Program-made: the position numbers and the translations under genes
In this document: piece by piece, positions 54,299 to 60,410 of the stretch
Position numbering within the stretch: position 1 is the stretch's first letter
Layout of the letters: every line of letters starts with the position of its first letter
Assembly (NCBI RefSeq): GCF_003334305.1
Contig: NZ_QOWS01000008.1
Length of the DNA: 64,000 nt
Direction: 5' to 3' (one strand)
Source of the DNA: Escherichia coli
GTDB lineage: Bacteria; Pseudomonadota; Gammaproteobacteria; Enterobacterales; Enterobacteriaceae
Notes under the pieces: generated by a model
Told to the model about the DNA's origin: nothing
The model's database searches: none
What the model saw: only the letters and a program-made list of their open reading frames with translations

Positions 54299-54329
54299 GT
54301 TATTTCTGAAACGAGGAAAGAAAAGATAT

Positions 54330-54362
54330 TAACTGAACTTAATTTATAAAATTAAGTTCAGT
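54330..54362. terminator. perfect 33-bp palindrome (15-bp stem, 3-nt loop), bidirectional terminator candidate between nikR and the hicB-like gene
   Basis: AACTGAACTTAATTT-ATA-AAATTAAGTTCAGTT read directly from sequence. Confidence 0.55.
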
Positions 54363-54417
54363 TGCATAGATAGATCCTGTAAAGGCAGATATTCTGCGTA
54401 ATGTACGCCGCTAAAAT

Positions 54418-54777
54418 TTATAAATGATTCAAACGCTCATTCAGTGTTTCAATAATATAGGTATTAACAGAGACTTGTTGCTGCGCAGCCGCATTATTAA
54501 GGCGTTCACTCAGCGATTCTGGATAGCGTAACGTAAAGGTCTTAATCTTTTCTGTACGCGCATACGGCTCAATACCCGCAGCTTTACAATCCTCAAGATA
54601 CTCTCGCAGGGAAAGTTCCCCTTCTTTTTGCAGCCCCTGAATGCTGTCAGAGACAAAATCACAATAACCTGACAAGCCCAGGAATTTGCCACGAAATGCA
54701 TTCAGTTCTGGCACGTAAGTGATAACTGCAGGTTGCCCGGCAATCTCCATAGAGTTTGGCGTCTTCAGTTTGATCAT
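54418..54777 (-). CDS. HicB-family antitoxin candidate with C-terminal ribbon-helix-helix DNA-binding tail
   Basis: 119-aa ORF; RHH-like C-terminus TFTLRYPESLSERLNNAAAQQQVSVNTYIIETLNERL; 4-nt ATGA overlap with upstream HicA-like ORF. Confidence 0.6.
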   Translation of the reverse strand: MIKLKTPNSMEIAGQPAVITYVPELNAFRGKFLGLSGYCDFVSDSIQGLQKEGELSLREYLEDCKAAGIEPYARTEKIKTFTLRYPESLSERLNNAAAQQQVSVNTYIIETLNERLNHL

Positions 54778-55049
54778 GGTTTTACCCCTATACTTAGTAA
54801 CCAGTCACGCACGCTTTCTACAGCGCCTTTATCGGTATCTGGCGACGGATGAGGCCGATGGAAACACGCAACGCTCATATTTAGTATGAACTTACAACGC
54901 GAACCTCTTCCTTCCTTAATTTCTCCGCCTAATGCTTTAACCAGTGACTCTATATCAGACCACTTGATCCCTTGAGGAACAGGAGTTTTAAATATTTGAT
55001 CCAATGTATTTTTTTGTTTCTTCCGTAAAGCCTGTACCTTGGTTCTCAT
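54774..55049 (-). CDS. HicA-family (YcfA-like) mRNA-interferase toxin candidate
   Basis: 91-aa basic ORF MRTKVQALRKKQKNTLDQIFKTPVPQGIKWSDIESLVKALGGEIKEGRGSRCKFILNMSVACFHRPHPSPDTDKGAVESVRDWLLSIGVKP with the conserved His-Pro core; toxin-first order typical of hicAB. Confidence 0.6.
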   Translation of the reverse strand: MRTKVQALRKKQKNTLDQIFKTPVPQGIKWSDIESLVKALGGEIKEGRGSRCKFILNMSVACFHRPHPSPDTDKGAVESVRDWLLSIGVKP

Positions 55050-55050
55050 G

Positions 55051-55102
55051 GCATGTCCTTATGACTTCACTTTATGACATCAATAGTATGACATCACAGT
55101 AT
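55051..55102 (-). promoter_or_regulatory. operator-like repeat cluster upstream of the hicA-like gene
   Basis: Direct repeats TATGACATCA (55062..55072 and 55077..55086) nested within inverted repeat ATGACTTCA ... TGAAGTCAA, directly 5' of the toxin start. Confidence 0.45.
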
Positions 55103-55121
55103 GAAGTCAAGTTTCCCTTCC

Positions 55122-56249
55122 TTACGCCATTGTCCCAATCGTCTTCCTGAATCGCAGCAGCGCGATGGTGAAAAACGCGCCGCCAATTGCCATCAGCGTC
55201 AGGAACTGCGGCCAGACGATTTCGAATCCGGCACCCCGGTAGAGAATGGCCTGCGCGAGGCTAACAAAGTGTGTCGTCGGCATGGTCAGCATAATGTCCT
55301 GCACCATCTGCGGCATACTTTCGCGCGGCGTGGATCCACCGGAAAGCATTTGCAGCGGCAGCAGCACCAGAATCACCAGCAGCCCCAGTTGCGGCATTGA
55401 ACGCGCTATCGTCCCCATAAAAATGCCGATTGACGTGGTGGCAAACAGACTGAGCGCCACGCCCAGCATAAACAGCGGGATCGAGCCTTCAATCGGTACA
55501 CCCAGCACGCCTTTCACCATCAGCACCAGTGATAATCCCGACACCACCAGCACCACCAGCCCCATCGACCAGACCTTTGCCATCATGATCTCAAACGGCG
55601 TTATCGGCATCACCAACAAGTGTTCCACCGTGCCGTGTTCACGCTCGCGGATCAGCGCCGATCCGGTCAATACAATCGCCAGCATGGTAATGTTGTTGAT
55701 GATTGCCATCACCCCGCCAAACCACGCGGGATCAAGGTTCGGGTTAAAGCGCATCCGGGTTTCCAGCGATACCAACGGTTCGCTGTTATCACGGTAGCGC
55801 GCGACAAAGCTGTTCACTTCACCGTTGATAATATTCTGGATATACCCATTGCCGGTAAATGCCTGGCTCATGCGCGTGGCATCGACGTTCACCTGAATAT
55901 CCGGCTGGCGTCCGGCGAGGACATCACGCTGAAAATTAGGCGGAATATTTATCGCAAAGGTATAACGCCCGGCGTCCAGTCCGGCATCCATCTCATCGGC
56001 GGTGATCATCTCCGGTGGCAAAAACCACGGGCGATAGAAGCTGTTAACGATCCGGTTCGATAACTGCGATTGATCCATATCGGCAATGGCGATCGGCGCG
56101 AGGTTCAACGATCCTGGCGTAACGGTCGCTGACGAATACACCGACACCGTAAACGAGAAGACAATCAGCGTCAGCATCGCTTTATCACCGAGCAGACTGC
56201 GCAACTCTTTGATACCCAGATTAAAAATATTGCGTAAATGGCGCATCAT
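55122..56249 (-). CDS. yhhJ: ABC-2 family transporter permease
   Basis: Membrane [34 protein letters not shown]; start taken at ATG 56249 overlapping rbbA stop (ATGA); the adjacent ATG 56246 is an alternative; ORF track extends to 56330. Confidence 0.9.
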
Positions 56250-58981
56250 CCCTCCTGTTTTTTCAGCAGCAGGATACTTAAGCCCATCACCAGCGGGATG
56301 GCTATCAGCAACGGGATAAAAAGTTGCCACAAATCAGTCAGATCCAGCGCCTTCGAGAACGTCCCGCGGGCGATAGTCAGAAAATGACTGGTCGGGTAAA
56401 CCTCGCCGATCCAACGTCCAGGCCCTTCCAGCGAAGCTACCGGATCGATCATCCCGGAAAACTGTGTCGCCGGGATCAACGTGATAATCGCCGTTCCGAA
56501 AATGGCGGCAATCTGGCTTTTCATAAAGGTGGAGATCAGCAGCCCCATTCCGGTGGCAATGATGATATACAGCAGCGCCGCCAGGGTGAGCGTCAGGAAA
56601 CTGCCTTTATGCGGTACGCCAAACACAAACACCGACAGGCCGCAGAGCAGGAAAAAGTTCAGCATCCCCAGCGCGATGTATGGCAACTGTTTACCAAGCA
56701 AAAATTCACTACGCGTGGTGGGGGTCACGTAAAGGTTGATAATCGACCCAAGCTCTTTTTCCCGCACCACGCTAAGGGCGCTTAGCATTGACGGGATCAT
56801 CATCAGCAGAAGCGGGATCACCGCCGGAACAATCGCTGGCAGGCTTTTTACGTCCGGGTTATAGCGATAGCGCGTCTCAATATTCATCAGCCCGCTTTGG
56901 CTGGCGGGTGTGGATTGTCGGCTCGCCACATCCTGTAGCCAGCTCTGGTGCATGGCCTGCACGTAACCTTTTACCGTTTCGGCACGGCTCGGCATCGCTC
57001 CGTCGATCCAGACGCCGAGTTCCACAGGCGTACCACGCGCGATATCGCGCCCGAAATTGGGAGGGATCTCAATTGCCACCGTTATATCGCCCGCACGCAT
57101 CCGACGATCAAGCTCGTCATAACTGGTGAGCGGCGGCTGTTCGATAAAGTAACGGGAACCGGAGAGATTGAGCGTCCACGCCTGGCTACTGACGGTCTGG
57201 TCGCGGTCGAGCACCGCAAAGCGCAGGTTTTCCACATCCATACTGATGCCGTAACCCATTATCAGCATCAGGATCACTGTTCCCATCAGCGCCAGCGTCG
57301 AACGTACCGGATCGCGTCGCAGTTCCAGTGCTTCGCGGCGGCTGTAGCTAAACAGACGGCGCAGGCTAAATCCCTGACGCGGCGCGTGGGTGGTGTCGTG
57401 TATCACGGGCGGCGCTTCGGCTTCGTTGCTCTGTCCTGCCGCTTCCTGCAAATAGGCGATAAATGCCTCTTCCAGACTGGCGGCTCCGCGTTTCTCAACC
57501 AGTTCCTGCGGTGTACCGCTGGCGAGCACTTTTCCGGCGTGCATCAGTGAGATGCGGTCGCAACGTTCCGCTTCGTTCATAAAGTGGGTGGAGATAAAAA
57601 TGGTTACTTTGTCCTGGCGCGAGAGATCGACCATCAACTGCCAGAACATATCCCTCGCCACCGGATCGACGCCAGAAGTAGGTTCATCGAGGATTAACAT
57701 CTCCGGGCGATGAATCACCGCCACCGCCAGCGAAAGCCGCTGGCGAATGCCGAGCGGCAATGACTCCGGCAGAACATCTTCAACGTCGTTGAGCTTAAAA
57801 CGCTCGCTCATTTCAGCCACTCGCGCGGGAATTTCCGCTTCCGGGATGTGAAACAAACGGGCATGTAACTCAAGGTTTTGCCGCACGGTGAGTTCGTTAT
57901 AGAGCGAAAACGCCTGCGACATATAGCCCACCCGACGGCGGGTATCGATATCTTTTGGATCAACCGGTTGCCCAAACAGCCACGCCTCACCTTCGCTGGC
58001 GGGCAGCAGTCCGGTGAGCATTTTCATGGTGGTGGATTTACCGCAGCCGTTCGATCCAAGAAAACCAAAAATCTCCCCGCGTGGAATGCGGAAATTGACG
58101 TGATCAACGGCAACGAAGGAACCAAAACGCATGGTCAGATCGCGCGCTTCGATGGCAATCTCTGCATTTTCAGGTTGATACGGTGGGATCACTACCGCCT
58201 GATGCGCCTGGCGTTGCGCTTGCGGTAACAGATTTATAAACGCCTCTTCCAGCGTGGCGCTTTGCGTTTGCTGCCGCAGCTCTTCGGCGCTGCCAGTTGC
58301 CAGCACTTCTCCGGCATTCATCGCTACCAGCCAGTCGAAGCGTTCGGCCTCTTCCATATAGGCGGTGGCGACCAGCACGCTCATATTGCTCTGCCGCTGG
58401 CGAATACTGTCGATCAGATCCCAGAACTGGGCGCGGGAGAGCGGGTCAACCCCCGTTGTTGGCTCATCAAGGATCAACAGTTCCGGGTCGTGGATTAACG
58501 CGCAGCACAGCCCCAGTTTTTGCTTCATCCCGCCGGAGAGTTTACCTGCCGGACGATCGCGAAACGGTGCTAACCCGGTGCTGGTCAGCAGCTCATTAAT
58601 TCGGACTTCCCGCTCCGCTTTATCGTGACCGAACAAGCGAGCGAAAAAATCGACATTTTCATACACCGATAAGGTGTGGTAGAGATTTTTGCCCAGCCCC
58701 TGCGGCATCCAGGCGATGCGCGGGCAGACGTCGCGGCGATGCTTCGGGTCGCGCATATCGCCGCCCAGCACCATCACATTGCCCTGTTCAATGACGCGGG
58801 CACCGGAAATCAACGACAACAAGCTCGACTTCCCGACGCCGTCCGGGCCAATCAGCCCGACCATGCAACGGGCCGGAATATCGAGTGTGATATTGTTCAG
58901 CGCAACGGTTTTTCCATAATGCTGGCTCACGCCCGCCAGTTGCGCGACAGGCGGGACGGGAACCAGTTCCAGATGCGTCAT
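56246..58981 (-). CDS. rbbA: ribosome-associated ATPase; fused tandem ABC ATPase plus ABC-2 permease
   Basis: 911-aa ORF with two Walker A motifs ([18 protein letters not shown]) and a C-terminal multi-TM domain. Confidence 0.94.
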
Positions 58982-60045
58982 TGCGGCAACCTCACCACGA
59001 GGTCGTCAGGCCACGGAAGTTCTTCATTCACCCGCACCCACGCTACGCCCGGTAAACCGGTTTTGACATATTCCAGATGCTGCTGGAGTAATTCCGGTGG
59101 GATACGCGCTTTGACGCGGAACATCAGTTTCAGCCGTTCATCGCTGGTTTCGACGGTTTTTGGCGTGAACTGGGCGACACTGGCGACAAAACTGATGGTT
59201 GCAGGAATACGCAGATCTGGCGCGGCATCGAGGATCAGCCGGGCTTCACCGCCCAGTTTCAGCGTGCCCGCCTGTTCGGTTGGCAGGAAGAAAGTCATAT
59301 AGACGTCGCTGAGATCGACCATATTCAGCACCCGACCGCCTGCCGCCAGCACTTCGCCTGGCTCGGCAACCCGATACTGCACGCGTCCGTCACGCGGGGC
59401 TTTCAGTTCGCTGTCATCGATATCTGCGGCAATGCGCCGTTCAGTGGCTTGTGCGGCTTCGACGCGAGTTTGCGCCTGAATGATATTGGTGCGTGCCGCT
59501 TCTATAGCGGCTTTAGAAGCCGAAACCTGAGCTTTTGCCGATTCCAGCGCAGCTCGGGCGCTCTCAGCGGCGGCGCGGTCGTCATCCAACTGTTGCGCAG
59601 AAATAGCCCCACGATGGGCGAGCGAGCGGGAACGGGTATGACGTTTGGCTACGGAGTCCAGTTCAGCTTGCCGTTGATTAACCAGCGACTGAGCGGCGCG
59701 AGTTTCACTTTGGCGTTGCTCCAGCAAAGCCTGCGCGGCAGCAACGGCGCTTTGTGCTTCTTTGATTTGCGCGATGGCTTCCAGTCGCTGTTCCTGCAAC
59801 ACGCGAGTATCCATCTTCGCCAGCACTTCACCTTCTCGAACAAACTGGCCTTCTTTCACCAGAATGGTGTCAATACGCCCGGCAATTTTGCTGGCGATAT
59901 CCACTTCCGTCGCTTCAATGCGCCCATTGCTGACAGCAAAGCCTTCCGGCACACCTGCCGGGCGCAACAGCCACCACGCCACGATAGCCGCCACCGCCAG
60001 TAACCCGACAACCCACCACGCCAGATGGCGCTTACTCTTATCCAT
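58978..60045 (-). CDS. yhiI: HlyD-family membrane fusion protein
   Basis: 355-aa ORF with N-terminal TM anchor and long Ala/Gln-rich coiled-coil segments; 4-nt overlap with rbbA. Confidence 0.92.
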
Positions 60046-60410
60046 AATCGACCCGCCATAATCCCTGTAAGCAAACGACGCGTGTTACAACTGCCGCCGA
60101 ACGACGTTCAGCGGATTCTTCCATCCGGGATAAGAAGGAAACGGCAAATACGACCAGCGCGCAGAGCATTGAGCGCCAACGGGGAAGGCTTAGTGAAAAC
60201 GGGTAGTAATGTTGTCATCATCAGCATTCCTGGCCGTAAATGAAACACGCATACTCATAAGTGTGATCTATAAAACTGGCTGACAAAACGGTATCCATCC
60301 TGTTGGATAGCGTTTCACGCCTGTTCAGTTGCAGGAACAGAGCATTCCTTTTTACGTTTTATCAACAGTCTCAACCAGATAGTAACATTAATATTCATGT
60401 TGTCTATGGT

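Follow-up and report, generated by a model that had tools for sequence, protein, structure and literature searches.

Among the transport systems described in Escherichia coli, the one closest to the locus treated here is YbhGFSR, an exporter of the ATP-binding cassette (ABC) class whose genes follow the order adaptor, double ATPase, permease, permease. The locus is the operon yhiI-rbbA-yhhJ, together with the short upstream open reading frame (uORF) yhiY, in a 64,000-nt stretch of E. coli DNA (contig NZ_QOWS01000008.1 of assembly GCF_003334305.1; this whole stretch is called the window below). Its three open reading frames run in the same direction on the minus strand, encode 355, 911 and 374 amino acids and carry the RefSeq names yhiI, rbbA and yhhJ. 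The gene order is that of ybhGFSR and every part is homologous: YhiI shares 30% identity with YbhG (E 5e-30), the two nucleotide-binding (ATPase) domains of RbbA, NBD1 and NBD2, are collinear with those of YbhF at 40% and 41% identity respectively, the permease of RbbA shares 32% with YbhS, and YhhJ has YbhR as its closest E. coli paralogue with 24% identity. The reciprocal best assignments between the triad and YbhGFSR were also consistent, and on this sequence comparison RbbA can be regarded as the equivalent of a YbhF-YbhS fusion. Because of the domains found, this collinear paralogy and a NodT-type outer-membrane factor gene upstream of the triad in 24 of 80 orthologous loci, we consider yhiY-yhiI-rbbA-yhhJ to be most likely one unit with its own sigma-70 promoter, coding for an adaptor-dependent ABC-2 exporter of the YbhGFSR type; that it exports, and that it uses TolC in E. 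coli, is what we infer from sequence. The initial annotation of this DNA had noted that the layout resembles an efflux system, and the same three lines of evidence bear this out.

The assignment made there of a membrane fusion protein, a double ATPase fused to a permease and a second ABC-2 permease also agreed with our Pfam and NCBIfam searches. YhiI matched the NCBIfam model RND_mfp (TIGR01730) with 118 bits against a cut-off of 94.9 as well as the Pfam families HlyD_3, HlyD_D23 and Biotin_lipoyl_2, and the hydropathy scan placed an N-terminal membrane anchor at residues 8-26. RbbA matched the equivalog NF033858 with 1597 bits (cut-off 1050) and, in Pfam, ABC_tran twice and ABC2_membrane_3, giving a layout of NBD1 (residues 28-176), NBD2 (293-436) and an ABC-2 permease (569-903). 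YhhJ matched ABC2_membrane_3 over residues 25-364 (E 3e-34), and its hydropathy profile consists of one N-terminal transmembrane segment, a predicted extracytoplasmic loop of ~140 amino acids and five more transmembrane segments. Together RbbA and YhhJ hold two ABC-2 permease domains, each of six transmembrane helices with a large loop after the first; neither domain had a match to ABC_membrane or C39 in Pfam, both being of ABC-2 type instead. The Walker A, Walker B and signature motifs of the RbbA ATPase domains are conserved in 81 orthologues, and two departures from the consensus are invariant in the same sequences, namely an NBD1 H-loop in which Tyr replaces His and the signature LPLGxRQ in NBD2. 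Under the standard geometry of the ABC dimer, the H-loop Tyr and LPLGxRQ leave RbbA with one degenerate and one consensus ATP site. It may be noted that YbhF shares this asymmetry, the H-loop Tyr in NBD1 as well as a signature of the form LPLGxKQ/LPLGxRQ in NBD2 being common to the two proteins. The solved structures closest to the RbbA ATPase domains are those of ABCA and ABCG exporters, with Rv1218c ranked lower, and the closest NCBIfam families are the DrrA- and NodI-type exporters, not ABC-F. Among the PADLOC defence models RbbA had only generic ATPase matches.

We then compared orthologous loci, taking one genome per species, which gave 80 loci spanning Alpha-, Beta-, Gamma- and Deltaproteobacteria, Verrucomicrobia and Planctomycetes. 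The order adaptor, RbbA, YhhJ was held in every locus with enough sequence to judge it, and the identity to the E. coli proteins was 65-90% for RbbA (median ~69% across the sampled classes), 52-88% for YhiI and 58-94% for YhhJ. On dividing the 81 RbbA sequences by domain, conservation was 73-78% in the ATPase domains and 62-70% in the permease with its extracytoplasmic loop. As the membrane part is about as conserved as the ATPase domains, it is likely to be functional, and the fused permease itself was found in 81 of 81 orthologues. The NodT-type gene mentioned above lies directly upstream of the triad on the same strand, its product matches TIGR01845 (412 bits, cut-off 210), and it is the only conserved neighbour of the triad. 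A TetR regulator of the CecR type was considered as a second conserved neighbour and rejected, being present in only 4 of the 80 loci. Judged by these sequences the triad appears to be a membrane export pump that is ancient and conserved over a wide range of bacteria, and the conserved linkage, the RbbA identity and the frequent channel gene point to a conserved envelope exporter.

The junctions between the genes were examined for coupling. It had been proposed that all three genes are joined by 4-nt ATGA overlaps; the yhiI/rbbA junction (GCAATGACG) is indeed a true overlap of this kind, while the rbbA/yhhJ junction (GGATGATGCGC) contains an ATGA but probably overlaps by 1 nt only. In RefSeq YhhJ begins with the second ATG (MRHL..., 374 amino acids), which gives the 1-nt overlap, and we favour this start because Citrobacter has GTGATG at the junction, because distant YhhJ orthologues begin between 1 nt before and 3 nt after the rbbA stop codon with starts that align to residues 1-6 of the 374-aa form, and because AGGAGG is only 1 nt away from the first ATG. 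The genes rbbA and yhhJ are tightly coupled, but a second ATGA overlap is probably not the link. A single 4-nt overlap is in itself ordinary, as such overlaps are frequent in the window (nikB/C, nikD/E and hicA/B). The adaptor/RbbA overlap is, however, conserved in 57-66 of 77 orthologous loci, which shows that the coupling is selected, and the RbbA/YhhJ spacing is 20 nt or less in 76 of 80 loci.

Taken as a working model, RbbA would contribute the two ATPase domains together with a permease domain of six helices, and YhhJ would add the second permease domain to form a pseudo-heterodimeric membrane core in which one ATP site is catalytic and the other degenerate. YhiI, anchored in the inner membrane, would connect the large loops that RbbA and YhhJ extend into the periplasm with a channel in the outer membrane. 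In E. coli this channel may be TolC or a different factor encoded elsewhere, and in ~30% of orthologous loci it would be a NodT-type protein of its own. The tight stop/start coupling would hold the three subunits in proportion.

Upstream of yhiI the initial annotation had described a 365-bp AT-rich gap. The length is exact (from the yhiJ stop at 60411 to the yhiI start at 60045 there are 365 nt), but with a GC content of 0.46 the gap is not strongly AT-rich, and yhiY, the promoter and a conserved leader inside it had been missed. A pattern scan located the promoter TAGACA-16-TACTAT just downstream of the yhiJ stop codon. The same hexamers were reported from genomic SELEX as an RpoD constitutive promoter of yhiI-rbbA-yhhJ, and the same study gives a separate promoter for yhiJ, flagged as an H-NS site (PMC3946193). 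Homologous hexamers (ATAGACA-N17-TAGTAT) are present in Citrobacter, Pseudocitrobacter and Kluyvera. The pattern scan detected no intrinsic terminator in the gap between yhiJ and yhiY/yhiI. The first cistron of the transcription unit is yhiY, which ends 62 nt before yhiI and whose translation has been detected by ribosome profiling (bioRxiv 10.1101/511675). With yhiY the operon (55122-60045) extends to ~60221, and with the promoter to ~60406; the coordinates 58978-60045 that had been assigned to the whole operon delimit yhiI alone.

On aligning the leaders of E. coli, E. albertii, Citrobacter, Pseudocitrobacter and Kluyvera, we found a block of ~60 nt to be nearly invariant, spanning the yhiY ribosome-binding site and first codons. 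Further down, a hairpin at 60094-60114, whose 5′ arm holds the yhiY stop codon, is among the few helices that the centroid fold retains. Of 9 leader sequences 8 have it, with 97% of cells paired over 8 sequences of 4 genera and 2 compensatory pairs, values that 55 of 500 shuffles equal. The fold of the leader as a whole is not significant (z = -1.4). A permissive Rfam scan of 54300-64000 returned one match, to a long non-coding RNA with E 0.57, which we take as chance. In published work, a yhiI fusion was up more than 2-fold in the rho mutant R66S, and yhiY-yhiI is among the uORFs with premature 3′ ends, lying less than 200 nt downstream of yhiY (10.1101/2020.07.18.207399). The leader probably sets the expression of the exporter, and yhiY with the surroundings of its stop codon would govern premature Rho-dependent termination before yhiI. 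On the strength of the leader conservation, the translation of yhiY and the published Rho effect, uORF-linked Rho attenuation is the most likely mode of regulation, as has previously been suggested in print.

Several points weigh against an attenuated exporter operon of this kind. The papers found name no substrate for YhiI-RbbA-YhhJ, no transport assay is known for it, and the only biochemistry of RbbA in the literature describes a ribosome-stimulated ATPase. The E. coli locus encodes no outer-membrane factor gene, so a tripartite assembly there is putative. The PDB holds no solved structure of RbbA, only of relatives. Also, an RbbA identity of ~69% is unusually high for a drug pump, which hints that the substrate is a housekeeping one or that the function is constrained in another way. 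As for the leader, it matches no known RNA family in Rfam, and its hairpin shows weak covariation, as the shuffles indicate, and is missing in Kluyvera.

The strongest of the competing explanations follows from the biochemistry. According to it, RbbA is mainly a ribosome-bound elongation factor that releases E-site tRNA, YhiI, YhhJ and the membrane domain serve only as its tether or regulators, and the resemblance to an efflux system is deceptive. The older biochemistry, as cited in PMC12096078, placed RbbA at the ribosomal E site and found poly-Phe synthesis to be stimulated, and that 2025 study itself obtained effects of 1.3-2.1-fold on in vitro translation. These effects are modest and were measured with a truncated RbbA lacking the membrane domain (PMC12096078), and the sole in vivo paper tying RbbA to ribosomes and to YhjD (Babu et al. 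2011) was retracted in June 2025 (PMC12169533). RefSeq still carries the product name "ribosome-associated" despite this retraction. With the ABC-F factors (EttA, Uup, YbiT and YheS) RbbA has two tandem ATPase domains and the reported ribosome binding in common. The inter-domain linker of ABC-F factors is ~80 amino acids long and contacts the P-site tRNA. That of RbbA has ~35 amino acids (residues 241-275), is poorly conserved (48%) and has no match to ABC_tran_Xtn (PF12848); RbbA has no PtIM/ABC_tran_Xtn linker. Also, ABC-F factors are soluble, whereas a six-helix permease is fused to RbbA in all orthologues; the RbbA ATPase domains are 40-41% identical to those of the exporter YbhF and only 26% to EttA; the membrane and periplasmic parts are conserved like the ATPase domains; and RbbA always lies next to an adaptor and a second permease, often with an outer-membrane channel. 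On both the linker and the membrane domain, then, RbbA falls outside the ABC-F family as judged by sequence. Its ATPase domains may have a moonlighting activity, which is unlikely to be the primary role, and we give the elongation-factor explanation as a whole little weight; the sequence evidence does not support "ribosome-associated ATPase" as the main role of RbbA. A genome-wide association study linked single-nucleotide polymorphisms in rbbA to microcin C resistance (PMC10926693). Correcting the label and identifying the substrate would matter for the annotation of thousands of genomes.

A second alternative concerns the leader, namely that yhiY acts not as a cis-acting uORF but through a functional small protein, which might for example associate with the pump as AcrZ does. 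YhiY is translated and annotated, it has a Pfam family of its own (PF23514) and it is 86-92% conserved within Escherichia. Between genera the pattern is different. The start is conserved as MMTT everywhere and as MMTTLLP in all but Kluyvera, while the peptide past codon 7 is not; the conserved DNA at the 3′ end of yhiY is read in a different frame in Citrobacter, and in Kluyvera the open reading frame is cut to four codons. A homologue search with the 46-aa Citrobacter YhiY found only Citrobacter proteins and one partial Salmonella match, and the hydropathy scan of the E. coli peptide showed no hydrophobic segment. With only the first codons kept, a frame switch and a truncation, what is constrained is likely to be the RNA or the process of translating it rather than the peptide, which favours a cis-acting uORF, and we regard a functional peptide as improbable. 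We also considered that yhiY is a ribosome-sensing leader, in which pausing or altered termination blocks Rho loading and switches on the exporter, so that the ribosome and efflux data would belong to one translation-stress response and the strongly folding insert that accompanies the neighbouring yhiJ/yhiL islet would rewire the leader in most E. coli. This is a speculative and rather doubtful extension of the attenuation scheme; if it were true, the trigger could be, for example, translation stress or a specific metabolite.

The islet genes yhiJ and yhiL lie immediately upstream, and the initial annotation had raised the question of a functional link, for example export, while favouring separate acquisition from the gap and a change in composition. 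The composition change was confirmed (GC 0.566 in the operon, 0.377 in yhiJ and 0.34 in yhiL). Of 5426 complete E. coli genomes, 5417 carry the operon and 4281 carry yhiJ, which is always single-copy and chromosomal. In ~1160 genomes the homology breaks off ~55 nt upstream of yhiY, with yhiM as the immediate neighbour; as yhiY is retained in these islet-free genomes, it is part of the operon and not of the islet. Outside Escherichia, no homologue of YhiJ or YhiL was found within 8 kb of the operon in 78 loci. Separate acquisition thus stands, on the operon without islet in these E. coli genomes and non-Escherichia loci and on the separate promoter. A search of 1.8 billion representative proteins showed the family of YhiJ, DUF4049, to be essentially confined to Escherichia, with three distant singletons at unrelated places (one beside bioB/bioD, one on a Rep3 plasmid and one on a short contig). 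The refuting condition set in the initial annotation, yhiJ-family genes at unrelated loci in most genomes, is uninformative as it was worded. Wherever yhiJ is present in the Escherichia genomes examined, including E. albertii, it lies directly upstream of the operon in the same orientation, which is one inherited arrangement and not independent co-occurrence. The presence of the operon without the islet is the decisive test for this reason.

ABC protein secretion relies on HlyB-type transporters, not on ABC-2 permeases, and ABC-2 systems are not known to act as protein secretors; this too counts against an export link between operon and islet. That the operon is functionally tied to yhiJ/yhiL, for instance by exporting YhiJ, YhiL or their product, with the adjacency being selected, is very unlikely, since the constant position and orientation of yhiJ and the lack of a detected intrinsic terminator in the yhiJ-yhiY interval stand against an operon that is retained without the islet, DUF4049 relatives at unrelated places, sharply different evolutionary rates (comparing E. 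coli with E. albertii, the identity is 98-99% for RbbA, YhiI and YhhJ but 57% for YhiJ), separate promoters of which that of yhiJ is marked as an H-NS site (PMC3946193), a YhiJ without signal peptide or transmembrane segment in the hydropathy scan, and a yhiL that is a pseudogene here and in K-12. The only plausible link would act in cis, with H-NS spreading from the AT-rich islet onto the nearby promoter or with transcription reading through from yhiJ, the latter being conceivable as no intrinsic terminator was detected. In studies of the operon the yhiJ/yhiL neighbours can be disregarded.

The boundary between operon and islet is itself complex. Between the -10 hexamer and the conserved leader lies an insert (60272-60378) that folds at -35.6 kcal/mol with z = -3.9 (0 of 200 shuffles). 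It occurs in single copy in 4283 of the 5426 E. coli genomes, close to the number for yhiJ, is present in E. albertii and is absent from the islet-free E. coli locus and from Citrobacter, and it is specific to the islet-bearing haplotype. A repeat element or miniature inverted-repeat transposable element was rejected for it, as it is single copy wherever present. We also rejected a clean deletion of the islet, as the islet-free site has ~280 bp of unrelated AT-rich sequence (32% GC). The yhiM allele of the islet-free haplotype, which lies just past the right end of the window, is ~78% identical to that of the islet-bearing one, and this suggests two old, divergent and complex haplotypes at the yhiJ locus. 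In E. coli CUVET18-1475 most of yhiJ has given way to an IS903B element and a pco copper-resistance island, with a 69-bp remnant left, and yhiY-yhiI-rbbA-yhhJ is intact despite this replacement. Table 1 collects the features of the region, in which the stretch 54300-62100 is 100% identical to the chromosome of E. coli strain H15. Annotation or earlier papers already cover the operon with its genes, yhiY and the promoter, and no new element is described here.

Table 1. Position of the operon, its leader elements and the flanking genes in the window
Feature	Position	Strand	Description
yhhJ	55122-56246	-	374-aa stand-alone ABC-2 permease; open reading frame and RefSeq
rbbA	56246-58981	-	911 aa, two ATPase domains fused to ABC-2 permease
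yhiI	58978-60045	-	355-aa periplasmic adaptor (membrane fusion protein)
Hairpin, 9 bp	60094-60114	-	CCGCUGAAC-GUC-GUUCGGCGG
yhiY	60108-60221	-	37-codon upstream open reading frame; RefSeq b4790
Conserved leader block	60200-60260	-	TTATGAGTATGCGTGTTTCATTTACGGCCAGGAATGCTG then ATGATGACAACATTACTACCCG
Structured insert, 103-107 nt	60272-60378	-	Between -10 hexamer and conserved leader
Sigma-70 promoter	60379-60406	-	TAGACA-16-TACTAT, pattern scan
yhiJ	60411-62033	-	DUF4049, 540 aa; islet gene, outside the operon
yhiL pseudogene	62295-63884	-	Paralogue of yhiJ; flagged as pseudogene in RefSeq
hicB	54418-54777	-	RefSeq annotation
hicA	54774-55049	-	RefSeq annotation

As for the neighbours, YhiJ matches DUF4049 in Pfam with E 4e-177, and its paralogue yhiL has an in-frame stop at codon 42 (63759-63761) and is 88% identical by tblastn to the intact YhiL of 529 amino acids that other E. 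coli have. The two share the motifs GDTDG, GDQTGDR, GNHE and HHG, whose core residues are invariant or nearly so in a family alignment of 11 sequences. DUF4049 proteins have weak matches to the Pfam families WipA_Phos and Metallophos. The AlphaFold model of a DUF4049 protein has a mean pLDDT of 65, with 80-95 in the core, and its only Foldseek matches in the PDB were the Legionella effector phosphatases WipB and WipA (E 2e-5 to 7e-4, TM 0.38-0.45). From this model and the motifs, YhiJ and YhiL look like putative divergent metallophosphatases of the PPP fold. A reading of the islet as a defence island was dropped, as PADLOC gave nothing for YhiJ or YhiL, and NCBIfam has no family for YhiJ, YhiL, HicA or HicB. 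On the other side of the operon, the toxin-antitoxin pair hicA/hicB sits between yhhJ and nikR in the window. The same position holds rhsB-yhhH-yrhC-yhhI in K-12 and a cluster of phosphotransferase system (PTS) and aldolase genes in other strains, which makes the downstream side of the operon, too, a site of variable insertions.

Coming back to the described systems, the triad departs from YbhGFSR in three respects: the ATPase pair is fused to a permease in RbbA while YbhF and YbhS are separate, the linker between the ATPase domains has ~35 amino acids in RbbA as against ~95 in YbhF, and ybhGFSR is regulated by CecR whereas the yhiI operon has a uORF leader instead of an adjacent TetR regulator. 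With transporters of the MacAB-TolC type it shares an inner-membrane ABC transporter with large periplasmic loops, an anchored adaptor of the HlyD family and, in the 24 loci with the NodT-type gene, an outer-membrane factor encoded in the operon. It differs from them in that the permease is of ABC-2 type (ABC2_membrane_3) and not of the MacB/FtsX family, the two ATPase domains share one chain, and the E. coli locus has no dedicated outer-membrane factor. From type I secretion (HlyB/HlyD/TolC) it is set apart by having no ABC transporter of the HlyB type. For the leader, the closest described cases are the attenuators mdtU-mdtJI and toiL-topAI, from which it differs in that the YhiY peptide is not conserved beyond its first seven residues. 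With both it has in common a long 5′ leader in which a short uORF is translated, 3′ ends that arise prematurely past this uORF together with upregulation in the rho mutant (10.1101/2020.07.18.207399), and the conservation across genera of the uORF start and its flanking RNA.

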